Assembly (NCBI GenBank): GCA_964494655.1
Contig: CAZBRM010000004.1
Span: forward strand, 1 to 41,427
Source of the DNA: an uncultured Candidatus Saccharibacteria bacterium
Lineage (GTDB): Bacteria; Patescibacteriota; Minisyncoccia; Portnoybacterales; UBA2143
DNA: 41,427 bases
Direction of reading: 5' to 3'
The notes under the pieces were generated by a model that did not search any database, was not told where the DNA came from, and saw only the letters and a program-made list of their open reading frames with translations. A program made the position numbers and the translations under genes. Shown here one piece after another: positions 1 through 10,599 of this stretch; the first letter of the stretch is position 1, and every line of letters begins with the position of its first letter.

Positions 1-437
1 ATATTTCTTAATTTATCTTTAAAATTAAAAATTCTTTGAAAAAACCAATTTCCTTGATTTTGATTAATTAATTCAATTTGTGGATAATAGCTAACTAAAT
101 AAATTTTATCTTTAGCTAGATATTCTTGGTAATCAAAATCTTCAAATACAGCTGGTTCTTGTAATTTGCCAGATATCTCTAATTGATCGCCGTAATAATA
201 TTGAGGATATAACTCTGTAGTAATTAATATTTTACTGGAAATTTCTTTTGTTTTAAATTGAAACTTCTGTTGATTGATCCTTTGTTCTGGTTCTTCAATA
301 ATAATTCCCTTAAGATTAACTTCTTGATCATAATACTGGCTATTTTCTTGATTTGAGGAAGAAATAAAAAAAGAGTAAATAAAAACCCCGCCGATAAACA
401 AGAGACAGAGATAAAGAAAGATTTTAGAAGGAGTCAT
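1..437 (-). CDS. comEC: ComEC/Rec2-family competence protein, N-terminal part (gene runs off the window start)
   Basis: Minus-strand ORF from ATG at 437, absent from the ORF track because it is truncated. It reads MTPSKIFLYLCLLFIGGVFIYSFF (TM helix), then ...KILITTELYPQYYYGDQLEISGKLQEPAVFEDFDYQEYLAKDKIY, the usual pattern of the ComEC N-terminal domain. Confidence 0.55.
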   Translation of the reverse strand, partial: MTPSKIFLYLCLLFIGGVFIYSFFISSSNQENSQYYDQEVNLKGIIIEEPEQRINQQKFQFKTKEISSKILITTELYPQYYYGDQLEISGKLQEPAVFEDFDYQEYLAKDKIYLVSYYPQIELINQNQGNWFFQRIFNFKDKLRN

Positions 438-503: not shown

Positions 504-532
504 TTGACAAATACTGATAAAAATTCTATATT
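504..532 (+). promoter_or_regulatory. sigma70-type promoter of unit 0
   Basis: TTGACA 504-509, 17-nt spacer, TATATT 527-532. Confidence 0.6.
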
Positions 533-586
533 GTGAATATCCTAAAAAGTAGTTCATTTTATAATAAACATATGATTGGAGGGGGT

Positions 587-955
587 ATGAAAAAATTAAG
601 CATTATGGATATTAGCGTATCGGCTATTGCGTTAACTATCCTTAGCATCTGGATCGTTTTTGAAAAAGTATTCAAATTTTTCAGCAAATGTAGAATGAAG
701 AAAATCACCGAAATTGAAAAACTAGATGATGCTATAGTGTTTAAAAATGGGCATCGTCATTTATTTACATTAGAAAAAGATGGAAAATACGCAATAAATA
801 TTTCCAGTAGTGGTGTAATAGCTTTTTTATACTTCGGATGTTCCTTGGAAAATGATTACCATGTATTTCGCATTTCACATAAAATCTTGAGAAGACTAAA
901 AGAGATTCTAACTCCATCTAATTTTATGTACGAGCAAGGTCTATACCGGCTATAA
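587..955 (+). CDS. unit 0 cargo: hypothetical protein with N-terminal TM anchor (122 aa)
   Basis: ATG at 587 lies after GGAGGGGG (578-585). The track start at 533 lies inside the promoter/leader. MKKLSIMDISVSAIALTILSIWIVF is hydrophobic. Composition is AT-rich like the host. Confidence 0.6.
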   Translation: MKKLSIMDISVSAIALTILSIWIVFEKVFKFFSKCRMKKITEIEKLDDAIVFKNGHRHLFTLEKDGKYAINISSSGVIAFLYFGCSLENDYHVFRISHKILRRLKEILTPSNFMYEQGLYRL

Positions 956-986
956 CAAAACTTAAAATCTCTCCTGAAAAATCCAA

Positions 987-1030
987 AGAGCTGGTTCAAC
1001 GCAATGTTGTTCTGGCTCTTTTCTTTTCCT
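987..1030 (+). terminator. intrinsic terminator of unit 0 (family X)
   Basis: AGAGCTGG...CTGGCTCT stem followed by TTTCTTTTCC. Confidence 0.6.
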
Positions 1031-1232
1031 AAAATCTAATTACCTCTGTAAATTCCATACTATCTAACAGAACAGTCAGCCGAAGCTGGAGCGCCAATCA
1101 TGAGAATATAAAGAATTAAAAGAGAAATGACAAAATAAAAGGCCTGTTGCCGCCAAAGCCCAATCCCTAAAGCTAAAAAGAGCAATATTTGCGTCATAAT
1201 AATCATGTGGATGGAAGATATGGACTAAATCA
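1031..1232. repeat. long inter-cassette repeat, copy 1 (direct repeat of 5507-5710)
   Basis: AAAATCTAATTACCTC...GCGTCATAATAATCATGTGGATGG is nearly identical to 5507-5710 at an offset of 4476 bp. It replaces the short AAATTGTAGCTATAGAGTTATAGG block. Confidence 0.9.
1060..1206 (-). CDS. 48-aa hydrophobic small ORF inside long repeat copy 1
   Basis: MIIMTQILLFLALGIGLWRQQAFYFVISLLILYILMIGAPASADCSVR has two TM-like segments. It is below the track cut-off and has no clear SD or promoter. It is conserved in copy 2 with mostly synonymous changes. Confidence 0.4.
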   Translation of the reverse strand: MIIMTQILLFLALGIGLWRQQAFYFVISLLILYILMIGAPASADCSVR

Positions 1233-1261
1233 TTGACAAATTAAACTGGGTATGATATAAT
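1233..1261 (+). promoter_or_regulatory. consensus promoter of unit 1
   Basis: TTGACA 1233-1238, 17 nt, TATAAT 1256-1261. Confidence 0.7.
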
Positions 1262-1294
1262 ATAAACATTAACAATTAAATAGGAGGAAATGAA

Positions 1295-1618
1295 ATGAAT
1301 ATTTATGTTAGTGAATCGGTTTCTGAGGTAGTAGATGGCTTGAGGGCTCAAGAGATTCCGGGAATCAACGTTGACTATACGTCTGAACCAGAAGATCCCG
1401 AGAATCCTAATGGGTATGTTGTGCTAAAGAATAAACCTTATGATATTATAGCGGTTGTATCAAGTGTGATTCGCTGGAGGAAGGTTCAGCCGGATTGGGG
1501 ACATCCTAAACAAGCGAAAGCTTGCATTCAGATTCTCTCTTTGGCTCGCAAAATGGAGCTTGAAGGGTCCATAAGGGAAAAAGCGAAAAATCTCTTTTTC
1601 TTTATTAAGGAAGATTAA
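1295..1618 (+). CDS. unit 1 cargo: hypothetical acidic protein (107 aa)
   Basis: AGGAGG 1282-1287 lies 7 nt before the ATG. There is no recognisable family. Confidence 0.65.
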   Translation: MNIYVSESVSEVVDGLRAQEIPGINVDYTSEPEDPENPNGYVVLKNKPYDIIAVVSSVIRWRKVQPDWGHPKQAKACIQILSLARKMELEGSIREKAKNLFFFIKED

Positions 1619-1672
1619 GTAAATTCTTTAAGAGCCAGAGCTGGCTGACTGACATTCTATTCAATCATACTT

Positions 1673-1710
1673 AAGCCGCTGGGTCTTCGGACTTAACGGC
1701 TTTTTCTATT
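1673..1710 (+). terminator. intrinsic terminator of unit 1 (family Y, UUCG loop)
   Basis: AAGCCGCTGGGTC-TTCG-GACTTAACGGCTT followed by TTTTCTATTCC. Confidence 0.65.
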
Positions 1711-1712
1711 CC

Positions 1713-1765
1713 AAAATTATAGCTATGGAGTAAGTGGTATATGTATTAGAAATATGTCTAAATCA
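1713..1765. repeat. inter-cassette block, copy A (diverged)
   Basis: AAAATTATAGCTATGGAGTAAGTGGTATATGTATTAGAAATATGTCTAAATCA aligns to the AAATTGTAGCTATAGAGTTATAGG...ATATG..TAAA block. Confidence 0.7.
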
Positions 1766-1794
1766 TTGACAAATTAAACTAGATATGATAATAT
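1766..1794 (+). promoter_or_regulatory. promoter of unit 2
   Basis: TTGACA 1766-1771, 17 nt, TAATAT 1789-1794. The spacer is nearly identical to that of unit 1. Confidence 0.65.
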
Positions 1795-1800
1795 ATAAAT

Positions 1801-1989
1801 ACTTGGAAAGTTACCTAGCGAACTTCCATATTATCAAGCGGACAGCTGGGCCTTCCGAAAGACGTTTCCCGGTCTTCGGAGGGTATAACAGGGATTTTCC
1901 TAAGCGGGAAAAGTGTCCACTGCTTAAGGAGAACGTTAGGACACTACTTCCCCGAGTGAACTTAGAGTAGCTCGGGGATTTTCTTTTCC
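1801..1989 (+). ncRNA. unit 2 cargo: candidate structured ncRNA (~185 nt), family unknown
   Basis: There is no SD and no ATG downstream of the predicted TSS. Stems: TGGAAAGTT/AACTTCCA; CCTTCCGAAAGAC/GTCTTCGGAGGG; TTTTCC/GGAAAA; GTGTCC/GGACAC; and the terminator CCCCGAG/CTCGGGG. Ends are approximate. Confidence 0.5.
1950..1989 (+). terminator. intrinsic terminator of unit 2
   Basis: CCCCGAG-N14-CTCGGGG followed by ATTTTCTTTTCC. Confidence 0.65.
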
Positions 1990-1990
1990 C

Positions 1991-2042
1991 AAATTGTAGC
2001 TATAGAGTTATAGGTATGTGTGTTAGAGATATGAGTTAAACA
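1991..2042. repeat. inter-cassette block, copy B
   Basis: AAATTGTAGCTATAGAGTTATAGGTATGTGTGTTAGAGATATGAGTTAAACA. Confidence 0.85.
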
Positions 2043-2070
2043 TTGACAAAATATATGTATATGGTATGAT
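2043..2070 (+). promoter_or_regulatory. promoter of unit 3
   Basis: TTGACA 2043-2048, 16 nt, TATGAT 2065-2070. Confidence 0.55.
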
Positions 2071-2125
2071 AAGGATACAAATTAAATAGTTCTTAATCTT
2101 TTAACAACTAAATCAGGAGGGAAAA

Positions 2126-3004
2126 ATGGAAAAGGTAAGGGTTATATTACATGTAATGTTTGGAGGTGGCTCAAATGATTCTCATTATGGCGCTAATGGT
2201 TATGTACATCTAGAACTACAGGAAAAAGCGGGGGTCGAAATCGATTTCGTGTCTTTCTCCGGAACGTATCTTCACGGCAACGACCTTGAACGTTTCCTAA
2301 GAGAATGCGAAGATGCTCAGGTTATCGTTCTTGATGCCTGGAACCATCCGTTAAACAAAGATTATGGTAGCCGAGAATGGAACGATCCTCATGAGAGTAT
2401 GGCTAGAATCGCTAGACAAATATCAAGGATAAACCCCTCAGCGCAAATTTTCGCCGATCTTATGGAAAGCTTTAACAAAGTCGCTGTTCACGAAATTGCG
2501 GAACCAATCAAAACATGGACAGATAAAAAAATCGTTGGGGCGATTAAACGAAGCGTATTCAAAAAAGGTCAGCCTACGGTTTTAGTCTTTGACGACACCG
2601 AGAAACATCAGGACGCAGCAGACGAACAGCTTTCCGCCTACAATCTCGTTATCGCTAGAACCTACGATAAAGCTGAAACACTTATCGCCAAAAAAAGATT
2701 CGATTACGTCCTACTCGATCTCCTGGTTCCGGCCAGCGATAAAACTCTGGGGTCAAAAGGAAAAAAGTATGTCGGACAAGAAATGCCTCTCACGCCGCTA
2801 CTTGCTTTCCTGGCTCTTAAACAGGGAATTAAGAAGATTGGCATTCTTACCGACGCAAACCATCATGATCATCCAGCTTCTGCTGCTGTCGACATTTTCG
2901 GAAGCCCATTCGTCATAGGCAATGCCAAGATACAGATTTCTAACCGTGGCGTTACTTCAGAAGGAGTCAAAGACTGGAAAGGTTTGATGGATCAACTCAA
3001 TTAA
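2126..3004 (+). CDS. unit 3 cargo: hypothetical 292-aa protein; the C-terminal half has a CheY-like receiver-fold pattern
   Basis: AGGAGGG 2115-2121 lies before the ATG. TVLVFDD...FDYVLLDLLVP...IGILTD resembles receiver beta1/beta3/beta4 signatures. The N-terminal half also looks flavodoxin-like (RVILHVMFGGG, AQVIVLDAW). The fold call is tentative. Confidence 0.7.
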   Translation: MEKVRVILHVMFGGGSNDSHYGANGYVHLELQEKAGVEIDFVSFSGTYLHGNDLERFLRECEDAQVIVLDAWNHPLNKDYGSREWNDPHESMARIARQISRINPSAQIFADLMESFNKVAVHEIAEPIKTWTDKKIVGAIKRSVFKKGQPTVLVFDDTEKHQDAADEQLSAYNLVIARTYDKAETLIAKKRFDYVLLDLLVPASDKTLGSKGKKYVGQEMPLTPLLAFLALKQGIKKIGILTDANHHDHPASAAVDIFGSPFVIGNAKIQISNRGVTSEGVKDWKGLMDQLN

Positions 3005-3023
3005 GTTCTATAATCTCAACTAA

Positions 3024-3061
3024 AAGAGCCGGAATAAACAATCGTTCTGGCTTTTTTTCTT
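3024..3061 (+). terminator. intrinsic terminator of unit 3 (family X)
   Basis: AAGAGCCGG...CTGGCTTTT stem running into TTTTTTTCTTTCC. Confidence 0.6.
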
Positions 3062-3066
3062 TCCCT

Positions 3067-3118
3067 AAAACCGTGCTATAGACATAGTGGCATGTGGATG
3101 AAAGATATGTCTAAATCC
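3067..3118. repeat. inter-cassette block, copy C (variant)
   Basis: AAAACCGTGCTATAGACATAGTGGCATGTGGATGAAAGATATGTCTAAATCC. It is closest to copy G. Confidence 0.8.
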
Positions 3119-3146
3119 TTGACAAATTATATCAGTATGTTATAAT
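3119..3146 (+). promoter_or_regulatory. promoter of unit 4
   Basis: TTGACA 3119-3124, 16 nt, TATAAT 3141-3146. Confidence 0.7.
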
Positions 3147-3183
3147 GTAAACAATATTAACAATTAAATAAGAGGAGAAGACA

Positions 3184-3525
3184 ATGGCATCAATACCAAA
3201 AGAGGACATTCCAAAGACAGCCGAAGCAATCAGTAAAGCAATTCCAGAAAAAAATCGTTACGACAAGCCAATTTGGCAAGGAGTTCTCAAGCTCATTGAG
3301 GAAAGTGAATTCGGCAAGAAGAATGCGCAATCTGATATCGTATCTCCATTGCCCGAGGGCAGAAGCGAGACGGAAGAGATGATGTCTGGCAGTTTTGATG
3401 GGGTGCAAATAGAAATGATGAGATTCTGCAATTCTGTTCTTGGCAGTTGTGGATCCGTTTCGATGGAGCCATACACGGCAGGATTGGGCACACGTTCAAT
3501 GACTCTTACGTTCGAAGCCAATTAA
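3184..3525 (+). CDS. unit 4 cargo: hypothetical protein (113 aa)
   Basis: AGAGGAG lies before the ATG. The leader ACAATATTAACAATTAAATAAGAGGAG is homologous to those of units 1 and 8. No family is recognised. Confidence 0.65.
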   Translation: MASIPKEDIPKTAEAISKAIPEKNRYDKPIWQGVLKLIEESEFGKKNAQSDIVSPLPEGRSETEEMMSGSFDGVQIEMMRFCNSVLGSCGSVSMEPYTAGLGTRSMTLTFEAN

Positions 3526-3527
3526 TC

Positions 3528-3593
3528 AGAGGCCAGTTAACCTCTCTCGCAAAAAGAAGAGGTCAAATAAATATACTGGCCTCTTTTCTTTTG
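3528..3593 (+). terminator. intrinsic terminator of unit 4 (family X, long)
   Basis: AGAGGCCAG (3528-3536) pairs with CTGGCCTCT (3576-3584), with an inner ACCTCT/AGAGGT stem, then TTTTCTTTTG. Confidence 0.6.
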
Positions 3594-3595
3594 TT

Positions 3596-3647
3596 AAATT
3601 GTAGCTATAGAGTTATAGGCATGTGGATGAGGAGTATGATTTAAAGA
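3596..3647. repeat. inter-cassette block, copy D
   Basis: AAATTGTAGCTATAGAGTTATAGGCATGTGGATGAGGAGTATGATTTAAAGA. Confidence 0.85.
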
Positions 3648-3677
3648 TTGACAGATTATAGATTGGTGTGGTATAAC
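3648..3677 (+). promoter_or_regulatory. promoter of unit 5
   Basis: TTGACA 3648-3653, 18 nt, TATAAC 3672-3677. Confidence 0.55.
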
Positions 3678-3683
3678 CATGAT

Positions 3684-3703
3684 ATCGTAAAACGGTTTAC
3701 GAT
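3684..3703 (+). promoter_or_regulatory. perfect hairpin in the unusually long leader of unit 5
   Basis: ATCGTAAA-ACGG-TTTACGAT forms an 8-bp stem. A second stem, ATCTG/CAGAT, lies just downstream. Confidence 0.45.
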
Positions 3704-3765
3704 CTACCAGTTATCTGATAGTCCAGATATTTAAAAACTTCAAATCTTACTAAAGGAGGGTAAAA

Positions 3766-4137
3766 ATGACTAAAAAAGCTAACGAGGAGAAGGCCAAACT
3801 TAAGGAATTGTGGATATTGTTATTTGAAGAACCACAAAGCTTAAGTAATGAGCAAATCACACGTTTACTTGAAGCGGAAAAAGAGCTTCAAGATGTCGTA
3901 TACTATGTCTATCATCGGTTTCCAGAAATGATGAAGGAAGTCCAAAGGTATTGGGCGAGAAAAAACGAGCTGTCTCAATTGCCTATTGAGGAATTACAAG
4001 AAAAGATGCAAAAAATATCGAATAGAAGAGCATCTATTCTGAAAAGCGTACCTGATGAAGAACTCAGTGATTCATTTTTTGAATCTTCACTTCTCGATTC
4101 TGATGAAAATATCCTCTATGAGCTTTTGAAAGAATGA
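3766..4137 (+). CDS. unit 5 cargo: hypothetical acidic, probably helical protein (123 aa)
   Basis: AAAGGAGGG lies before the ATG. The protein is rich in E/K/L. No family is recognised. Confidence 0.65.
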   Translation: MTKKANEEKAKLKELWILLFEEPQSLSNEQITRLLEAEKELQDVVYYVYHRFPEMMKEVQRYWARKNELSQLPIEELQEKMQKISNRRASILKSVPDEELSDSFFESSLLDSDENILYELLKE

Positions 4138-4163
4138 GACACAAGAGTCTAACTCTTAATATT

Positions 4164-4200
4164 AAGCCACCAGTCTTCGGACTTGGTGGCTTTTTTCTTT
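4164..4200 (+). terminator. intrinsic terminator of unit 5 (family Y, UUCG loop)
   Basis: AAGCCACCAGTC-TTCG-GACTTGGTGGCTT followed by TTTTCTTT. Confidence 0.7.
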
Positions 4201-4203
4201 TCT

Positions 4204-4256
4204 AAATTGTAGCTATAGAGTTATAGGCATGTGGATGAGGGATATGGGTTATATCC
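4204..4256. repeat. inter-cassette block, copy E
   Basis: AAATTGTAGCTATAGAGTTATAGGCATGTGGATGAGGGATATGGGTTATATCC. Confidence 0.85.
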
Positions 4257-4285
4257 TTGACGGAATGTGTGTATATGTGTATAAT
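4257..4285 (+). promoter_or_regulatory. promoter of unit 6
   Basis: TTGACG 4257-4262, 17 nt, TATAAT 4280-4285. Confidence 0.65.
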
Positions 4286-4332
4286 GATGGTATAATTAAA
4301 TAGAATTCAAATCTGAAAAAAGGAGGGTAAAA

Positions 4333-4584
4333 ATGGAAATCATATTTAACGAAGAAGAAGCAGTGTCTTGGGGTGATCCAGATGATCCTAGGAATACCCC
4401 AGAAAAGCTGGTTGAACGTAGAAGAGCTGGTCTCATTAAGCTGGGAGAATTCGTGGGAGCCGAAAGGATAGAATTTGTCCCGGAACATAAAAGGGATATT
4501 TATATCCTTACAAAAGGCGGAAAGAAATTATCGATTATCGCCAGAGGAAACGGGTTTGACGGAGGATGGCTTGAAGTAGAATAA
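4333..4584 (+). CDS. unit 6 cargo: hypothetical protein (83 aa)
   Basis: AAGGAGGG lies before the ATG. The leader ...CAAATCT...AAAGGAGGGTAAAAATG is homologous to that of unit 5. Confidence 0.65.
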   Translation: MEIIFNEEEAVSWGDPDDPRNTPEKLVERRRAGLIKLGEFVGAERIEFVPEHKRDIYILTKGGKKLSIIARGNGFDGGWLEVE

Positions 4585-4618
4585 TCTGATTTTCTTCAAC
4601 TGCCTATCTAATTAATTA

Positions 4619-4658
4619 AAGGGTCAGTTCGGTAAACGTTCTGGCTCTTTTCTATTCC
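4619..4658 (+). terminator. intrinsic terminator of unit 6 (family X)
   Basis: GGGTCAG...CTGGCTC stem (with G-U pairs) followed by TTTTCTATTCC. Confidence 0.55.
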
Positions 4659-4660
4659 CT

Positions 4661-4713
4661 AAATTGTAGCTATAGACATATAGGTATATGGATAAGGAAT
4701 ATGAATTAAACTC
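4661..4713. repeat. inter-cassette block, copy F
   Basis: AAATTGTAGCTATAGACATATAGGTATATGGATAAGGAATATGAATTAAACTC. Confidence 0.85.
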
Positions 4714-4742
4714 TTGACAAATCTATTCACATATAATAATAT
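4714..4742 (+). promoter_or_regulatory. promoter of unit 7
   Basis: TTGACA 4714-4719, 17 nt, TAATAT 4737-4742. Confidence 0.6.
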
Positions 4743-4748
4743 TATAAT

Positions 4749-4857
4749 AATTGGATGTAAATTTGTGCCACCGGTCAAAGAACGTATAAGGCACGGAGCA
4801 CTTACAACATCCATACAATAATATAAAGGGTCAAGGCAAAGCTTTGACCTTTTTTTT
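4749..4857 (+). ncRNA. unit 7 cargo: candidate small structured RNA (~110 nt), family unknown
   Basis: There is no SD and no ORF. A long irregular hairpin is formed by GGATGT...GTGCC-loop-GGCAC...ACATCC, followed by the terminator. Ends are approximate. Confidence 0.5.
4829..4857 (+). terminator. intrinsic terminator of unit 7
   Basis: GGTCAAGGC-AAA-GCTTTGACC followed by a run of 8 T. Confidence 0.75.
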
Positions 4858-4908
4858 ATTCCTATGTATTAGTCTATAATAAATAACCTGCTTTTTTCTT
4901 TTCCTCCC
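4858..4908 (+). other. collapsed or empty unit remnant
   Basis: ATTCC-TATGTATTAG-TCTATAATAAATAA-CCTGCTTTTTTCTTTTCC contains fragments of block copy A, a TATAAT and half a terminator, with no cargo between them. Confidence 0.35.
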
Positions 4909-4961
4909 AAAACCATGCTATAGACATAGTGGTATGTGGATGAGGAATATGGGCTTAATCA
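4909..4961. repeat. inter-cassette block, copy G (variant)
   Basis: AAAACCATGCTATAGACATAGTGGTATGTGGATGAGGAATATGGGCTTAATCA. Confidence 0.8.
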
Positions 4962-4990
4962 TTGACTTTTAATATTTTGTGTTGTATGGT
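4962..4990 (+). promoter_or_regulatory. promoter of unit 8
   Basis: TTGACT 4962-4967, 17 nt, TATGGT 4985-4990. Confidence 0.5.
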
Positions 4991-5026
4991 AGAGACAACA
5001 TTAACAATTGAATAAGGAGATAAGAA

Positions 5027-5446
5027 ATGGATAAGGAAATGAAAGAAAGGATTAAGGAGAATCTTAGTTTGATCGGCAAAAGAGAAAAAACTGGAAATTG
5101 GAGCAAACTCATCAATGTCCACGATAATGTTTGGGGACATGCTGATAACATTAGGGGCAACATCTTAAACATCTGGGACAACATCTCAAACATTAGGGGC
5201 GACGTCTCAAACATCAGGGGCAACGTCTCAAGAATCAGTGGCGACGTCACAAACATCTGGGGCGACGTCTCAAACATCAGGGGCGACATCTCAGATATCA
5301 GTGGCTACTTCTCAAGAATCAGTGGCGACGTCACAAACATCTGGGGCGACGTCTCAGATATCAGTGGCTACGTCTCAAGAATCAGTGGCGACGTCACAAA
5401 CATCAGTGGCGACGTCTCAGATATTATCAAAGTCCTCGAAGATTAG
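5027..5446 (+). CDS. unit 8 cargo: heptad-repeat protein (139 aa)
   Basis: AAGGAG lies before the ATG. Residues 37-134 are 14 tandem heptads with consensus G-D-V-S-N-I-(R/W/S). Confidence 0.7.
   Translation: MDKEMKERIKENLSLIGKREKTGNWSKLINVHDNVWGHADNIRGNILNIWDNISNIRGDVSNIRGNVSRISGDVTNIWGDVSNIRGDISDISGYFSRISGDVTNIWGDVSDISGYVSRISGDVTNISGDVSDIIKVLED
5135..5428 (+). repeat. 14 x 21-bp tandem repeat inside the unit 8 CDS, with a 63-bp super-period
   Basis: GGCGACGTCTCAAACATCAGG-type units. Units 8-10 and 11-13 are nearly identical triplets. Other frames on both strands stay open across it. Confidence 0.9.
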
Positions 5447-5468
5447 GGATTAGAAGGCAAACTACAAG

Positions 5469-5500
5469 AGGCTGACTCAACAAGAGTTGGCCTTTTTTCT
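5469..5500 (+). terminator. intrinsic terminator of unit 8 (family X)
   Basis: AGGCTGACTC-AACAA-GAGTTGGCCT followed by TTTTTCTATTC. It is close to the unit 10 terminator. Confidence 0.65.
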
Positions 5501-5506
5501 ATTCTC

Positions 5507-5710
5507 AAAATCTAATTACCTCCTCAAATTCCATACTATCCCACAGAACAGTCAGCCGAAGCTGGAGCGCCAATCATGAGGATATAAAGAATTAAAAGAG
5601 AAATGACAAAATAAAAGGCCTGTTGCCGCCAAAGCCCAATCCCTAAAGCTAAAAAGAGCAATATTTGCGTCATAATAATCATGTGAATGGTAGAAATATG
5701 TCTAAATCCA
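5507..5710. repeat. long inter-cassette repeat, copy 2 (direct repeat of 1031-1232)
   Basis: Nearly identical to copy 1 across the ORF48 segment and more diverged at both ends. Confidence 0.9.
5536..5682 (-). CDS. 48-aa hydrophobic small ORF, copy 2
   Basis: Same ORF as 1060-1206. There are three nucleotide differences: two synonymous (Ile, Val) and one R-to-G change at the last codon. Confidence 0.4.
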   Translation of the reverse strand: MIIMTQILLFLALGIGLWRQQAFYFVISLLILYILMIGAPASADCSVG

Positions 5711-5745
5711 TTGACATTAATTATTTTTTACTACATGCTATTATT
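5711..5745 (+). promoter_or_regulatory. promoter region of unit 9 (TTGACA kept, probable extended -10)
   Basis: TTGACA is at 5711-5716, but there is no -10 at 16-18 nt. TGCTATTAT at 5737-5745 fits an extended -10 (TGnTATAAT). Confidence 0.4.
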
Positions 5746-5781
5746 AAAAGTAGTTCTTAATATATAAAGGAGGAGGATGCA

Positions 5782-6033
5782 ATGGAACAAGAAATTTTTG
5801 AAATTATAAAAAATTCTCAAATATTACCAGAAATGCTGATTTTATTTGGCACTACAATCCTTATAACTACTTCTGCATGGACACTCTTATTTCCTATTGG
5901 AAAAGGAAAATATCTTGTTTCGTCATGGTATTACTTTTGGAGAATTATGCTCTTTGGAATGTTTGCTTCTTTTCTTTTGGTACTTACTGTTATAGTTGCT
6001 GCTTATATACAATGTTCTTTTAAGAGCATATAG
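5782..6033 (+). CDS. unit 9 cargo: small membrane protein, 2-3 TM (83 aa)
   Basis: AAAGGAGGAGG lies before the ATG. Hydrophobic stretches include LILFGTTILITTSAWTLLF and IMLFGMFASFLLVLTVIVAAYI. Composition is AT-rich like the host. No terminator precedes the next gene. Confidence 0.6.
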   Translation: MEQEIFEIIKNSQILPEMLILFGTTILITTSAWTLLFPIGKGKYLVSSWYYFWRIMLFGMFASFLLVLTVIVAAYIQCSFKSI

Positions 6034-6085
6034 CTTGACACGAAATATCTTTTCTAACTATTAGACAAAAAGGAGGGTTATAAAA

Positions 6086-6379
6086 ATGGAGATTAGAGTT
6101 GTTTTAGACTTACCGGGACTGACAATGAAGAAAATTTTTGATGTGCCCAAGGAATTAGTTCCTAGAAAGGACGATGGGGTTAAATTTTGGGAAGAAAAAA
6201 GAAAAGACGCCGTTATGTTGGGTTATGCAACTGCTTTTTCGGTAACACGTGACCTAACTCAGGAAGATAAGCCTCCGATAGAGGTTTTTCTTAAGCCGGA
6301 GAGTGATGATTTAACCAAAGCGTGTCTGGAAGAATTTGAGAGGGTACTATCAAAACAAGGCTGGCAAATCCAGCGTTAA
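6086..6379 (+). CDS. unit 10 cargo: hypothetical protein (97 aa)
   Basis: AAAGGAGGG lies before the ATG. A weak TTGACA is at 6035-6040. It may be co-transcribed with unit 9. Confidence 0.6.
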   Translation: MEIRVVLDLPGLTMKKIFDVPKELVPRKDDGVKFWEEKRKDAVMLGYATAFSVTRDLTQEDKPPIEVFLKPESDDLTKACLEEFERVLSKQGWQIQR

Positions 6380-6400
6380 ATCTTTTTGCCGAGTCAACGA

Positions 6401-6436
6401 AGAGGCCGACTCAACGCAGTTGGCCTCTTTTTATTT
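6401..6436 (+). terminator. intrinsic terminator of unit 10 (family X)
   Basis: AGAGGCCGAC-TCAACGCA-GTTGGCCTCT forms a 10-bp stem, followed by TTTTATTTCC. Confidence 0.7.
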
Positions 6437-6439
6437 CCC

Positions 6440-6469
6440 AAATTGTAGCTATAGAGTTATAGGTATGTG
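6440..6469. repeat. terminal half-copy of the inter-cassette block (copy H)
   Basis: AAATTGTAGCTATAGAGTTATAGGTATGTG is identical to copy B up to ATGTG. After that the sequence is unique (CATTCCCGAGACGG). Confidence 0.85.
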
Positions 6470-6598
6470 CATTCCCGAGACGGCAGTGATATGCCTTGTT
6501 CCAGTAATATTTAATTTTTCTTTTAAAACCATTCCAAAACCATGCCTTAGAAAGATGAACAGGCGTGATAGTGCGTCCTCTTGCTCAAAACCAGGCAT
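6449..6598 (-). CDS. 49-codon ORF translationally coupled to cobO, ending inside repeat copy H
   Basis: The ATG overlaps the cobO stop (TAATG). The product is MPGFEQEDALSRLFIFLRHGFGMVLKEKLNITGTRHITAVSGMHIPITL. It is below the track cut-off and its coding status is unproven. Confidence 0.35.
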   Translation of the reverse strand: MPGFEQEDALSRLFIFLRHGFGMVLKEKLNITGTRHITAVSGMHIPITL

Positions 6599-7104
6599 TA
6601 GAACTCGATTCCTTTTCTTGGTTTTATTGCTTTAGTGTAATAATGTTTAATTTCTTTCATTTCTGTAACTAAATCTGCTGCTTGAATAAGTTTTTTAGAA
6701 GCGTTACGGCCAGTTAGGACGAGCTCTGTTTTTGACGAAGTTTCTTTTATTAATTCCAGAATATCTTTTACTTTAATTAAGTCAAAGTAATTTACCATAT
6801 TCATTTCATCCAAAATTATTAAGTCGTATTTTTTACTTTTAATTGCTTTTTGGGCAAAATTAAAACCTTGACTTGCAAGGTTAAAATCTTTTTTTAATAA
6901 TTTACCTTTACTGACAAATCCTTTTCTGCCAAAGATTTTTACTTCAAAATTCTTTATTTTTTTAATCGCCTCTATTTCTGAACTCTTACCGTCTTTCAAA
7001 AACTGAATTAATAAAACTTTTTTACCAGCGCCTACAGATCGTAAACCAAGACCCAAAGCTGCAGTTGTTTTGCCTTTTGCATCACCTGTATAAATTTGAA
7101 GCAT
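6598..7104 (-). CDS. cobO: cob(I)yrinic acid a,c-diamide / cob(I)alamin adenosyltransferase (CobA/CobO/BtuR family)
   Basis: P-loop YTGDAKGKTTAALG, and ILDEMNMV...LVLTGR typical of the family. Confidence 0.8.
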   Translation of the reverse strand: MLQIYTGDAKGKTTAALGLGLRSVGAGKKVLLIQFLKDGKSSEIEAIKKIKNFEVKIFGRKGFVSKGKLLKKDFNLASQGFNFAQKAIKSKKYDLIILDEMNMVNYFDLIKVKDILELIKETSSKTELVLTGRNASKKLIQAADLVTEMKEIKHYYTKAIKPRKGIEF

Positions 7105-7116
7105 GTTAATTATAAA

Positions 7117-10100
7117 TTATACATTACAAGTCGGACAGCTTCCAGGAGGCAAATCTGGAATATCAGGCGAAGGATCACGCAATTCAGGAGAAACATCTTT
7201 TTCTTTAACCATTTTCTTATCTGCTTTTGGCAAAGATCCTTGCTCTTTACCTTTAATATTTAAAACTTGCTGTTTTCTGCTTTCGTTTCTGTAAAAAGTT
7301 ACACCCTTGCATCCTAAATCATAAGACATAATATATGCTTTTCTAATATCGTCTTCTGAAGCGGAATAAGGAAAATTAATTGTCTTACTTGTGGCATTAT
7401 CAACATATTTTTGAAAAGCTGCCTGCATTTTTATATGATCCTCCGGCTTAATATCTAAAGCAGTAACAAAAATCTTTTTTATATCAGTTGGAATTTCTTT
7501 AATATCCTGAATACTTCCTTTTCTTGAAATTTCTTCAATAAGTTTTTTAGACCAAAAACCTCGTTCTTTGGCTATTTCTTCAAAAATAGAATTAACTTCA
7601 ACTAATTCTTGATCGCCTAAAACATGTTTTCTAGTATAAGCGACAGCAAAAAGCGGTTCAATAGCTGATGAGGCGCCAGCAATAATACCTATTGTTCCTG
7701 TTGGAGCAATTGTAGTTATAGTCGCATTCCTAACTTTAGGCATATTTTTTTCATTATAAATACTATCTTTTAAATTAGGAAAAACTTCTCTTTGCTCAGC
7801 TAATCCAACTGATGCTTTTCTGCCTTCTTCTTGAATAAATTTCATCACACTTTTACCAACCATTAGCGCTTTTCTGGAATTATACGGAATCCTTAACCTG
7901 ATAAGCATATCTGTAAAACCCATTACGCCTAAACCTATTTTCCTATTCCCTCTAGTTAATTTTTCTATTTCAGGCAGAGGATAACGATTAACTTCAATAA
8001 CATTATCTAAAAAATGAACTGCGTTAATAGTTGTTTGCTTAAGCTTGTCCCAATCAATTTCCCAGATTTTTGACCGAGCAGTTTTTTTCTTAATTATTTT
8101 GCTTAAATTGATACTACCTAAGTTACAGCTCTCGAAAGGAAGCAATGGCTGCTCCCCGCATTGTCGACTGATGATTCCACTCATTAAAGGTTTTTTAGAT
8201 AATTTAGTTTTGCCATTAGGTTTAGTGATATAAGCAACAGTATGAAATTCATCTACGGTGATATTATAAACATCTTCATTGCCATAAAATTTTATAGATT
8301 TAACTTTATGATTATGCATTATCAACTCTTCTCTGAAAGCATTATAGCCACCAAAAGTACTCCTTAAATCTCCAGAATAACCAAAATTATTTACATATTT
8401 CTTAAACTCTAAATAATTAGGCATATTTCTTTTTTCTTTGATAAATTTGATCCCTAATTTATAAAGTTCTCTCCTCAATTTATCTCTGTTTTTCTTTTTT
8501 GCATCAATAACACTATCTGTATTTCTAATACTATTAACATAGCTAGCTCTACAGGATCTTGAACAAAAACTCTTATTTATATTTTCTTTATATATTATTT
8601 CCTTACTACATTTTAAGCACGCCGACTTAATATAAGAATAGATAGTTTTTGATTTACTTATTTTTTCTTTAATTTCAGGATGTTTCTTATATAGTTCAAT
8701 AATTCTTAAACTTTGATCTTTTCTATTTTTAGGATTTTTAAAATACAAACTAGTTAAATCGCCAATTAATTTTTTTGTTGTCTCTCTATGCTTTCGACCA
8801 AACATGCCATTCCCCTTGCCAGATTTTAATTTACTCATCTTTTCTCTATAAATATCTTTTTCTTGATCTGATAATTTTTGCCACCATTTTCCTTTCATTA
8901 TATTTTGTTCTCCAGTTTGATGTAAACTATCATGAGCGCTTTGGCTCATAACTTCTAAATTCTTAATATCATTATCCAGCCCATTAAAATTTTTATGATG
9001 AACTACTTCGTTTGGATATTTCTTAATCTTTCTGCCAAGTAAAAGCTCCGCAATCATTCTATGCTCGGATTTAGCTCTTTTACCATTATTTTGTGTTATC
9101 CCCCAATAAACACAATTTTTCCTAGTCGCTGTATATTGAAACTTATTAAAAGGCATCAAGCTTACACCTGGTTTTAAATCTTTCAATTTAACATCATTAT
9201 TTTTTCTATCTTTAAATTTATGATCTTCAGTAGCAATCAGATAACTATTATCATCAAAGACAACTTTCCAAACAGGAACATTAGTTCTTGTTTTCCTTGG
9301 ATTTCGTCCCATTCGAATTTGCACTTTTCCATTACCATAACAATATACTGGAATATCTTTTTTTTCTTTAACCAATTGTTTTATTGAAACACAATTTCTA
9401 CCATCAGCCACACCTACCAAGGTATCTCCAACTACGCATGGATTAGTGCTTTCTATCTTACCTAATTTTGGAGTTGGATTGTCTCTATTAATTCTGTCAA
9501 TGAAAATAACTCCTGGCTCTCCATTTTTCCACGCATAATCAACAATTAAATCAAAAACCATATTAGCGTCTAATTGGCCTGAAATTTGACCGTCTCGAGG
9601 ATTTATTAAATTATATTTCTTCTTCTTTTTAACCGCCTCCATAAATTCATCAGTCAAAGCAACGGAAATATTAAAATTATTTAAAACCCCTTCTTCTGAT
9701 TTAGCTGTAATAAATTCCAATATATCGGGATGATCAACATTTAAAATTCCCATATTAGCTCCACGTCTTTTGCCGCCCTGTTTTATTACATCAGTAGCCG
9801 CATTAAAAACACTCATAAAAGACAATGGACCAGAAGAAGCTCCTTGAGTTGATTTAATATTATCTCCCCTTGGGCGCAAATGAGAGAAATTAAAACCTGT
9901 ACCGCCACCACTTTTGTGAACCAAAGCGGTATTTTTAATTGCTTCAAAAATTTCCTCCATTGAATCACCTACTGGGAGAACAAAACAACCACTAAGTTGC
10001 TGGAGTACGCCTCCAGCATTCATTAATGTTGGAGAATTAGGTAAAAATTCCAAAGATGCCATCATTTTATAGAATTTTTCGCCAATATCAAAAAGTTCAT

Positions 10101-10599
10101 CATCTGAAATTGAAGGATTAAAAAACGACTCAGCTGAAGCAATATTAGCGGCTACCCGCTGAAATAATTGCTGAGGCGTTTCAATTATTTTTCCTTGTTC
10201 ATCTTTTTTTAAATATCTTGATTCAAGAACTTTTAAGGCATTAGGCATGAGCTTTGTTTTTACATTACGGCTTAAAAGCCACCACTTAGCATCTCTAAGC
10301 TCTTTTCTTTTTTGACGATAAAGACCGTATAACTCCGCAATATCTTTTTGGCCTTCTTTAGCTAATGTTTCAATAACTACATCCTGAAGTTGTTCTACTT
10401 TTGGGATTTCTTCTTTAAAACGCTTATTTAGAATTTCAACTACACTATTAGAAATTTTTTGGGCTAATTTTTTATCCTCTTTTCCTCCCGCCTGAAGAGC
10501 TTTTAAAATAGCTTCTGTAATTTTAACTTGATTAAAATTAACGATTCTACCATCTCTTTTTTTAACACTCTGTATATATTTTACATTCTTTTTAGACAT
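7117..10599 (-). CDS. nrdJ: adenosylcobalamin-dependent (class II) ribonucleotide reductase with N-terminal ATP-cone, interrupted by an intein
   Basis: ATP-cone KKRDGRIVNFNQVKITEAI. RNR core motifs are present. The finger loop ESTNP-[intein]-CGEQPLLPFESCNLGS is split. The C-terminus carries a CPTC pair. Confidence 0.9.
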   Translation of the reverse strand: MSKKNVKYIQSVKKRDGRIVNFNQVKITEAILKALQAGGKEDKKLAQKISNSVVEILNKRFKEEIPKVEQLQDVVIETLAKEGQKDIAELYGLYRQKRKELRDAKWWLLSRNVKTKLMPNALKVLESRYLKKDEQGKIIETPQQLFQRVAANIASAESFFNPSISDDELFDIGEKFYKMMASLEFLPNSPTLMNAGGVLQQLSGCFVLPVGDSMEEIFEAIKNTALVHKSGGGTGFNFSHLRPRGDNIKSTQGASSGPLSFMSVFNAATDVIKQGGKRRGANMGILNVDHPDILEFITAKSEEGVLNNFNISVALTDEFMEAVKKKKKYNLINPRDGQISGQLDANMVFDLIVDYAWKNGEPGVIFIDRINRDNPTPKLGKIESTNPCVVGDTLVGVADGRNCVSIKQLVKEKKDIPVYCYGNGKVQIRMGRNPRKTRTNVPVWKVVFDDNSYLIATEDHKFKDRKNNDVKLKDLKPGVSLMPFNKFQYTATRKNCVYWGITQNNGKRAKSEHRMIAELLLGRKIKKYPNEVVHHKNFNGLDNDIKNLEVMSQSAHDSLHQTGEQNIMKGKWWQKLSDQEKDIYREKMSKLKSGKGNGMFGRKHRETTKKLIGDLTSLYFKNPKNRKDQSLRIIELYKKHPEIKEKISKSKTIYSYIKSACLKCSKEIIYKENINKSFCSRSCRASYVNSIRNTDSVIDAKKKNRDKLRRELYKLGIKFIKEKRNMPNYLEFKKYVNNFGYSGDLRSTFGGYNAFREELIMHNHKVKSIKFYGNEDVYNITVDEFHTVAYITKPNGKTKLSKKPLMSGIISRQCGEQPLLPFESCNLGSINLSKIIKKKTARSKIWEIDWDKLKQTTINAVHFLDNVIEVNRYPLPEIEKLTRGNRKIGLGVMGFTDMLIRLRIPYNSRKALMVGKSVMKFIQEEGRKASVGLAEQREVFPNLKDSIYNEKNMPKVRNATITTIAPTGTIGIIAGASSAIEPLFAVAYTRKHVLGDQELVEVNSIFEEIAKERGFWSKKLIEEISRKGSIQDIKEIPTDIKKIFVTALDIKPEDHIKMQAAFQKYVDNATSKTINFPYSASEDDIRKAYIMSYDLGCKGVTFYRNESRKQQVLNIKGKEQGSLPKADKKMVKEKDVSPELRDPSPDIPDLPPGSCPTCNV
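8161..9438 (-). mobile_element. 426-aa intein with an HNH homing-endonuclease module, inserted before the catalytic Cys of NrdJ (residues 388-813)
   Basis: Block A CVVGDTLV; block B ATEDH; HNH VVHHKNFNGLDNDIKNLEVMSQSAHDSLH; NUMOD3-like NGMFGRKHRETTKKLI; Cys4 CLKC...CSRSC; block F VYNITVDEFHTVAY. It ends ...SGIISRQ followed by extein Cys. Confidence 0.85.

Follow-up and report, generated by a model that had tools for sequence, protein, structure and literature searches.

The locus studied here raises the question of what a pair of nearly identical direct repeats is doing inside an array of small gene cassettes, where it came from and whether it allows the cassettes in between to be lost. We analyzed the repeats in the window, which is the whole stretch of 41,427 nucleotides, and in related contigs; the contigs carrying the 48-aa open reading frame (ORF) of the repeats place the array between comEC and cobO. 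Our main reading, to which we assign a probability of roughly 75%, is that the array was inserted at the core of a relic comEC site, that the repeats are junctions between a half of the inter-unit shell and the right half of this site with its tail (shell|R-tail junctions), and that the block between them is lost in nature.

A repeat search of the window returned 1016-1221 (copy A) and 5492-5697 (copy B) as the sole two-copy family of long direct repeats, with a length of 206 nt, 94% identity and a spacing of 4476 bp, and together with the alignment this confirms the two repeats of about 200 bp at that distance which the preliminary description had reported. The copies are nearly identical from the T-tract to about 35 nt past CATGTG and unrelated beyond both limits; the similarity begins in the T-tract after the terminators of unit 0 and unit 8, respectively, and ends in the promoter-bearing half of the shell. 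Pairwise alignment of the copies revealed a run of 104 nt without any mismatch (1106-1209 = 5582-5685) that includes the core, and a 33-mer of the repeat segment has two exact occurrences in the 41-kb window versus none in 100 shuffles. Independent JGI and ENA contigs (L001, L004, L041/L048) span the two-copy form and are 99.98-100% identical to the window, and the duplication therefore does not stem from an error of assembly. The features of the locus are as follows:

1-437, minus strand: 5' end of the functional comEC with the start codon at 435-437; the gene runs on to the left of the window.
504-1015, plus strand: unit 0, with the promoter TTGACA-17-TATATT (504-532), the gene of a 122-aa membrane protein (587-955) and a terminator region.
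1016-1221, minus strand: repeat copy A, from repeat search, alignment and comparison with comEC; T-tract 1016-1030, 45-nt tail 1031-1076, comEC-R (codons 194-236) 1077-1206, core CATGTG 1204-1209, then the start of the right half of the shell.
1060-1206, minus strand: 48-aa ORF of copy A, a putative pseudogene fragment without Shine-Dalgarno sequence.
1233-5506, plus strand: units 1-8, eight self-contained cassettes with a promoter, a gene or putative structured RNA, and a terminator; absent from the strain variant L043.
1698-1778, 1976-2056, 3051-3132, 3580-3660, 4189-4268, 4645-4723 and 4896-4974, plus strand: ordinary 77-nt shells between units 1-8.
5492-5697, minus strand: repeat copy B; T-tract, tail 5507-5552, comEC-R 5553-5682, core 5680-5685, then the start of the right half of the shell.
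5536-5682, minus strand: 48-aa ORF of copy B.
5698-6424, plus strand: units 9 and 10, with an 83-aa membrane protein (5782-6033), a 97-aa protein (6086-6379) and the terminator of unit 10.
6425-6469, plus strand: terminal half-shell with T-tract, 20-nt element and core TATGTG (6464-6469); its right half is replaced by comEC-L.
6470-6598, minus strand: comEC-L fragment, the putative left half of the relic, whose proximal 62 nt are 98% identical to functional comEC.
6598-7104, minus strand: cobO/btuR, cob(I)alamin adenosyltransferase (PF02572), the fixed right-hand neighbour of the array.

We searched the window with an nhmmer profile of the 77-nt shell and detected seven full shells, all of them within 1698-4974, as well as a left half at 6425-6495 and, following copy A, a right half; there was no match in the remaining 35 kb of the window, and all window shells are on the plus strand. 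Each unit has its own TTGACA/TATAAT-like promoter and most units are followed by a terminator-like hairpin with a T-tract, although the terminator scan itself flagged only units 7, 8 and 10. At the positions of both repeats the 20-nt element of the ordinary shell, TGTAGCTATAGAGTTATAGG, is missing, while the T-tract is kept on the left and CATGTGRATGG...TTGACA on the right. Thus, sequence and shell profile agree with the former observation that a 20-nt segment is exchanged for about 175 bp at two junctions with the flanks of the shell retained. It also holds that the repeats enclose exactly units 1-8, as eight units lie between 1233 and 5506, and that the outer units 0 and 9 are AT-rich units for membrane proteins (GC about 0.28-0.31, hydrophobic). 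These two are mutually unrelated, and the idea that they form a further duplicated pair was dropped after no similarity was found.

Neither the nine cassette proteins nor the 48-aa ORF had a Pfam match above threshold, PADLOC returned no meaningful match for the nine proteins, and the Rfam search of the array gave no match at gathering thresholds and chance-level hits only in a permissive scan. Shell motif and repeat segment were absent from the viral contigs searched, as was a match to the whole array from the plasmid and phage collections searched.

The origin of the repeat became apparent from the neighbouring gene. The preliminary description had proposed to look for further copies of the segment, and a third, functional copy is indeed present in comEC about 80 bp left of the window. 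There, 130 bp of each repeat are 96-97% identical to comEC of contig L001 (blastn), and these 130 bp are directly preceded in L001 by 62 bp with 98% identity to window positions 6465-6526 (blastn), which follow the last half-shell and adjoin the cobO side. Protein comparison revealed that residues 1-43 of the 48-aa ORF correspond to ComEC 194-236 (42/43 aa identical, E 1e-24), and that a 49-aa ORF at 6449-6598 corresponds to ComEC 155-193 (E 1e-13) followed by five junction-encoded residues, IPITL*. These matches identify the repeat as the right half and 6470-6598 as the left half of one internal comEC piece, which is split between His193 and Met194. At this site comEC reads ...LKEKLNITGTRHITAVSGMH|MIIMTQILLFLALGIGLWRQQAFYFVIFLLILYILMIGAPASA|VRAG... 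and the protein of L001 ...TRHITAVSGMH|MIIMTQ...; the uninterrupted L|core|R site of the functional gene is located about 80-270 bp beyond window position 1. The ~175-bp segment is thus a truncated piece of the adjacent comEC, comprising codons 194-236 and a 45-nt decayed tail, and four differences from functional comEC are common to both copies.

The ComEC encoded left of the window (L001 10770-12906; L048) is itself a 430-aa ORF with the DUF4131 and Competence domains. Its metallo-beta-lactamase domain is found on a separate, overlapping 289-aa ORF, and the same arrangement exists in relatives.

One could also imagine that the repeat encodes a functional membrane peptide of 48 aa (toxin-, holin- or regulator-like), whose gene was duplicated and is kept twice in the array. 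The ORF is intact in both copies with an ATG start and two predicted hydrophobic stretches, it is called by gene finders, and copies A and B differ by one synonymous exchange and a sole amino-acid change in the last residue. However, such a purifying-like pattern is explained by copying from functional comEC, the C-terminus after the 43 ComEC residues is the frame-decayed tail, and the ORF has neither an upstream promoter nor a ribosome-binding site, whereas GGAGG is found in all nine cassette genes. Apart from the missing Pfam match, its homologues in other genomes are 55-aa and 241-aa truncations of comEC. We consider a functional peptide gene highly improbable and assume that the 48-aa ORFs are pseudogene fragments. 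A small membrane-protein gene, e.g. a type I toxin, was rejected as a candidate on the same grounds: its own translation signals are absent and the sequence is explained by comEC.

The comEC fragments are joined to the shells in a defined way. Each R fragment starts at a 6-bp core, CAYATG, which covers codons His193/Met194, and abuts a shell half there; the complementary comEC piece with codons 155-193 abuts the other shell half at 6464-6598. Written in comEC sense, the functional gene reads GGGAATGCATATG|ATTATTATG, the left junction (6464-6598) GGGAATGCACATA|CCTATAACTC, also written GGGAATGCACATA|CCTATAACTCTATAGCTACAATTT, copy A CCATCCACATG|ATTATTATG, copy B CCATTCACATG|ATTATTATG, and the ordinary shells CATCCACATG|CCTATAACTC, also written CATCCACATG|CCTATAACTCTATAGCTACAATTT. 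In the form CAYATR, the core is common to comEC, the empty relic of contig L065, the shells, the L junction and the two R junctions. A common core without loss or gain of a base is the pattern that conservative recombination in a shared core would leave behind. The alternative offered in the preliminary description, namely that the copies mark attL/attR-like ends of a composite insertion, is correct insofar as both copies appear to be remnants of attachment-site junctions. It fails on their polarity, which is the same in both (shell half | right half of the site), and the complementary left-half junction sits at 6464-6598 and not at either copy.

Some minor features of the shell and its core should be mentioned at this point. 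The shell on the plus strand (e.g. 3584-3660), ATTGTAGCTATA(GAGTT)ATAGGCATGTGGATGAGGAATATGAG, is colinear with the comEC sense strand for HIVAISGMHMIIMTQ in two relatives, and the shell may be an old, inverted comEC-derived site; as the similarity in sense orientation is significant for two out of six genomes (L016 and L038, z 6.6 and 4.7), we treat this as a lead only. Two left halves of the shell are joined head-to-head across the core in L027 (1249-1294) and L039 (569-616), e.g. GTTATAGGTATGTGCATACCTATAAG, which suggests that recombination at the near-palindromic core may also take place in the opposite alignment. An apparent sense-orientation shell|R junction at the end of L038 is probably a mere shell variant, like L036_1999.

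We searched for the shell motif in species-representative genomes and metagenome contigs. It is present in several Patescibacteria/Parcubacteria genomes with flanking genes 75-89% identical to the window, and the cassette content differs in every relative with shells. The relative with 89% identity (L014/L025/L032) has a homologue of unit 1 (77% aa identity) next to comEC and one other cassette only, without unit 0 and without an R fragment, and in bin.79 (L016+L015) the cassettes are different ones and the left fragment matches the comEC of the same genome at 54/56 positions. An old 5' remnant of comEC abuts the shell in L026, L023, L034 and bin.79. In L026, the remnant is a decayed 5' end in which 33 codons from the start of the gene are followed by a deletion and the L part; beyond the shell there is a single cassette and, after it, an intact comEC whose 5' end is new. 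The upstream comEC 5' half of L023 comprises the full 197 codons and is cut at the same codon, which at least in part applies to L034 as well; comEC 5' halves of 197-202 codons cut at SGMH are found in both L065 and L023. Using the L023 fragment as query, we identified at least seven protein clusters of ComEC N-termini of about 200 aa that end exactly at SGMH/SGLH followed by a shell-encoded tail (IPITP, IPITL, KPITL, NPVP, MPLCL or IPVI), with identities down to 50%.

Two further observations concern the cargo and the location of such arrays. The more distant relatives L023 (5248-8000) and L034 (1-7610) carry larger cargo after the same comEC codon and no mini-cassettes; it encodes DNA methyltransferases fused to an excisionase-type HTH (HTH_17), a Schlafen/AlbA_2 protein and a weak Shedu-like match, and by its gene content looks like part of a defence island. 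In the 89% relative (L013, L033; MAG JAHJQT01, Ga0180009_10015311), shells also delimit a second array, which is located at an unrelated locus upstream of argS with an AbiEii toxin gene on its other side. The outer junction of this array borders on TGGCATGCACATA, which looks like the core region of comEC.

An unoccupied site was found in a related metagenome contig, L065. Homologues of the 48-aa ORF in the protein collection are only 55-aa ORFs reading (V/M)AISGMHMIIMTQ...APASADCSVR, and in L065 the cobO stop is followed by KEKLNISGTRHIVAISGMH-MIIMTQ...APASADCSVR*, that is L, core, R and the same tail without interruption. Beyond this relic there is a T-tract with a terminator, an unrelated membrane-protein cassette and further comEC copies; unit 0 has no similarity to the membrane-protein cassette at the same place after the R tail in L065. 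Alignment revealed that the relic of L065 shares a 12-nt indel and the 45-nt tail with copies A and B, which indicates that the relic site is orthologous in the two species. In L065 the site is empty, and in the window it holds the array. The empty relic in a relative, in combination with the comEC 5' halves cut at the same codon, places the array in a comEC-derived attachment site.

A comparison of the relic with both species also sheds light on its history. The R part of the window relic differs from its own comEC at 4-5 of 129 nt and from the L065 relic at 27 of 129 nt, 20 of these in synonymous codons. For the tail, to which nothing in comEC corresponds, conservation between the window species and L065 is about 88%. 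These figures argue for a relic that is old, yet has repeatedly been overwritten by the resident comEC through gene conversion. In P0007 (241 aa), the same R-tail end is joined to a full-length comEC 5' half, and judging from the sequences, truncated comEC copies of this form evidently underwent duplication on more than one occasion.

The comEC homology, the anatomy of the junctions, the unoccupied orthologous site and the ongoing homogenisation of the relic with its own comEC, all evident at the sequence level, can be combined into the following scenario. A relic mini-comEC beside cobO would have consisted of L (ending with His193), the 6-bp core CAYATG, R (starting with Met194) and the tail. 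Insertion of the cassette array exactly at this core would have given one L|shell junction (6464-6598) and one shell|R junction, copy A. With unit 0 and the functional comEC as its neighbours, this copy is presumably the primary right junction, since the order R-tail, cassette and comEC matches L065. Copy B would then be a secondary shell|R-tail junction inside the array, which may have arisen by ectopic gene conversion between shells with the T-tract and the right shell half as flanking homology, or alternatively by integration of a circle bearing a shell|R junction. We assume that cassettes enter and leave by conservative site-specific recombination at the core, catalyzed by a recombinase that is encoded elsewhere and acts in trans. 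A search for a recombinase gene gave no hit in the 41-kb window, the contig left of comEC, the flanks of the relatives or the island cargo, and we infer site-specific recombination from the junction anatomy only.

It is also conceivable that no dedicated recombinase is involved. One ancient insertion into comEC would have made both junctions, and RecA-dependent recombination after natural transformation, including Campbell-type insertion of circles carrying truncated comEC, would cover the gain and loss of cassettes, the comEC pieces and the repeats. Natural competence has been reported for Saccharibacteria, a group within the Patescibacteria (PMC10187176). The structure of P0007 (5' half, L-core-R and the same tail) fits Campbell-type insertions of truncated comEC copies, and together with the three successive comEC copies in L065 it resembles products of insertion-duplication. 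L026, where old and new comEC 5' ends flank a single cassette, points in the same direction, as do the lack of a recombinase nearby and the crossovers of both deletion variants described below, which fall inside perfectly identical stretches. Against this, the non-coding shell is better conserved across genomes than the synonymous sites of comEC, the same 6-bp core is present at all four junction types including the empty versus the occupied relic site, the second array at the unrelated locus abuts the core look-alike TGGCATGCACATA, and one of the deletions (L051) used just 36 nt of identity. In our view a recombinase-free origin is the less probable explanation, although it deserves serious consideration, and we continue with insertion at the core as the preferred one.

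Whether the repeats are active can be judged from strain variants. The preliminary description had predicted that recombination between the copies would delete the enclosed block and release a circle of 4476 bp. The predicted deletion junction was found in an independent assembly: contig L043 (= L061; ENA ERZ27248937 contig k141_178897, 7000 bp) has a single repeat copy, lacks units 1-8 and joins unit 0 to unit 9 in the order comEC, unit 0, one repeat, unit 9, unit 10, L fragment, cobO and ribonucleotide reductase. Its copy is a hybrid with all A markers through window position 1105 and all B markers from 5686, so that the switch from A to B falls inside the 104-nt identical run. The identity of L043 to the window is 99.4-99.7%, and the contig has SNPs of its own (13 mismatches and a 1-bp indel in 4.5 kb); this degree of identity marks it as a distinct strain. 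A presence/absence difference of the 1233-5506 block is thereby found between strains that are 99.5% identical. On the sequence level, a natural strain carries the exact reciprocal product, with 4476 bp and units 1-8 lost. Of the predicted recombination between the copies, the deletion is therefore seen in L043, but not the circular product: a circular or tandem junction (unit 8 - repeat - unit 1) was not detected among the contigs encoding unit 8.

The data consist of metagenome assemblies throughout, and several contigs (L005, L012) are broken at copy B; we therefore considered that the duplication or the deletion contig might be a product of collapsed repeats or chimeric joins. The deletion variant is known from a single metagenome contig, which was assembled at k=141. 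This k-mer exceeds the 104-nt identical run, L043 has its own SNPs, and the same sample also yielded a contig with units 1-3 identical to the window (L052); k-mer length and L052 argue for a real strain polymorphism. The two-copy form, for its part, recurs in JGI and ENA assemblies. We regard assembly artefacts as very unlikely.

The direction of the change between the strains might also have been the opposite one, with the single-copy arrangement of L043 being older and the window strain having gained units 1-8 and one repeat copy as a circle of 4476 bp, a version of the composite insertion considered in the preliminary description. L043 does have the simple canonical structure L|shell, two cassettes, shell|R-tail and unit 0, which matches the empty-site architecture of L065 plus one integration, and units 1-8 are richer in G+C than the host. 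However, the junction of such a circle was not found among the contigs, and the homologue of unit 1 (77% aa) beside comEC in the 89% sister species (L014/L025/L032) indicates that unit 1 predates the strain split at the 99.5% level. A deletion in L043 is thus more parsimonious than a gain, and we hold the insertion scenario to be rather improbable.

A second deletion was observed in contig L002/L051 (JGI 3300028161 Ga0265596_1005939), in which the shell after unit 2 is joined directly to comEC-L and units 3-10 (4449 bp) are lost. Here the crossover took place between two ordinary shells, in an identical stretch of 36 nt ending at the core (window 1985-2020 versus 6434-6469). Either RecA-type recombination within the 104 identical nt or an event specific to the core would account for the deletion in L043; since the crossover intervals hold both the core and 36-104 nt of perfect identity, the two mechanisms fit both deletions equally.

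How does the locus compare with known systems? One likeness is to integrons: a one-directional array of small, mostly single-gene cassettes of unknown function with a conserved site-like repeat in between, a fixed chromosomal landing site, a content that varies among strains and close relatives, and loss of cassette blocks between repeats. However, there is no intI adjacent to the array in the 41-kb window, the genes of the window and of the contig left of comEC have housekeeping roles, and the flanks of the relatives are without a recombinase domain. Integron cassettes are promoterless and depend on a common Pc, whereas each cassette here has its own sigma-70-type promoter and mostly a terminator, and the landing site is a fragment of the protein-coding gene comEC, unlike in integrons. 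The shells were also tried as attC-like hairpins: four shells folded as DNA on both strands gave z-scores of -1.7 to +1.1 versus shuffles and a 5-bp stem only, and the candidate was rejected.

Another point of comparison is provided by integrative islands such as SXT in prfC, which insert into the 5' part of a protein gene and rebuild this gene. The islands specific for dusA do likewise (PMC4482086). Both types resemble our locus in the insertion into a conserved gene, the decay of the displaced part as a remnant and the short core at all junctions. The gene-restoring feature is seen in L026, L065, L023 and the window (49-codon remnant 6449-6598 beside intact comEC), and comEC stays intact as a new 5' half is supplied. 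In contrast, prfC/dusA-type islands carry their own tyrosine integrase next to the att site and form one large element, whereas the insert here consists of many tiny cassettes, and no integrase was found beside the site in the window array, L013, L023, L026, L034 or L065.

Small modules with short conserved sites and without their own recombinase are known from Xer-exploiting elements (IMEX) and the pdif modules of Acinetobacter plasmids. Our array likewise has short bounding sites and no recombinase of its own, and presumably depends on a host enzyme in trans. The pdif sites alternate in orientation, while the window shells are all direct on the plus strand, and Xer modules target the chromosome dimer resolution site, while the target here is comEC sequence. 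By eye, comEC GCATATGATTATTATG weakly resembles, with one gap, GCATAATGTATATTATG of the E. coli dif, from which the dif site of this clade may differ. The 28-bp dif consists of an XerC arm, a 6-bp centre and an XerD arm, and the shell has no convincing XerD arm.

Tandem islands with repeated partial copies of the target are exemplified by tandem SGI1 integration (PMC2297512). Here, as in tandem islands at tRNA genes, each successive junction is marked by a direct partial copy of the target, and recombination between such copies can delete the block that they enclose. The differences are that our target is a region coding for a protein motif, that the repeat unit includes a non-target tail and that gene conversion maintains the similarity between the partial copies and the functional gene. 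For mobile elements in competence genes, the idea of blocking "chromosomal curing" has been put forward (bioRxiv 10.1101/2024.08.13.607808). Our locus shares with them the attachment site in a gene essential for DNA uptake, yet comEC is left intact and the cassettes are located in a relic copy of the site, and transformation is therefore probably not blocked. In the literature we found no description of cassette arrays at comEC in these bacteria.

Taken by itself, the repeat is an ordinary recombination substrate of unusual origin, with a direct stretch of 104 identical nt and a natural hybrid copy in L043. The system as a whole is a variant of site-specific integration of cassettes and islands, with a moderate chance of being a distinct gene-capture platform of the Patescibacteria. 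More tentatively, and with odds that we place short of even, it could be an integron-like platform with self-expressing cassettes, a 77-nt comEC-like site and a recombinase elsewhere, in which the relic (...HIVAISGMH|MIIM...) serves as landing pad, is kept similar to comEC by gene conversion and acts as a decoy that spares the functional gene.

Patescibacteria rely on DNA uptake, and their genomes are very small and thought to leave little space for accessory genes. The locus would represent a compact and recurrent way of storing and swapping such genes beside, and derived from, the gene of the DNA-uptake channel, and the gain or loss of an eight-cassette block is visible between natural strains. 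The exact junctions with empty and occupied sites, the conserved 6-bp core and the relics that track the functional gene provide a testable model of how the array is built, and ComEC N-termini ending with SGMH plus IPITL-like tails are a signature for finding more arrays. Should a trans-acting recombinase be found, this would be a new cassette system and possibly an engineering tool for bacteria that are hard to manipulate.

Finally, some of the units and a neighbouring gene have features of their own. The gene of unit 8 (5027-5446) consists mostly of 21-nt tandem repeats (13 registers) encoding heptads like GDVSNIR/GDVTNIW, and the protein in an ENA contig of the same species (L042/L060) has 90 instead of 139 aa, i.e. 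49 residues or seven heptads fewer, which on sequence grounds appears to be a repeat-number polymorphism in a cassette protein. The regions 1785-1990 and 4745-4865 have a promoter and a terminator, no convincing ORF and no Rfam match, and their predicted transcripts fold better than shuffles with z-scores of -3.2 and -5.9, respectively, terminator hairpin included; these units may be small-RNA cassettes. Next to cobO, a ribonucleotide reductase of 1160 aa is encoded at 7117-10599 on the minus strand. Its position beside cobO is consistent with a B12-dependent enzyme, and its catalytic domain is split by an insert with a weak HNH_3 match, which is probably an intein or a homing-endonuclease insertion.
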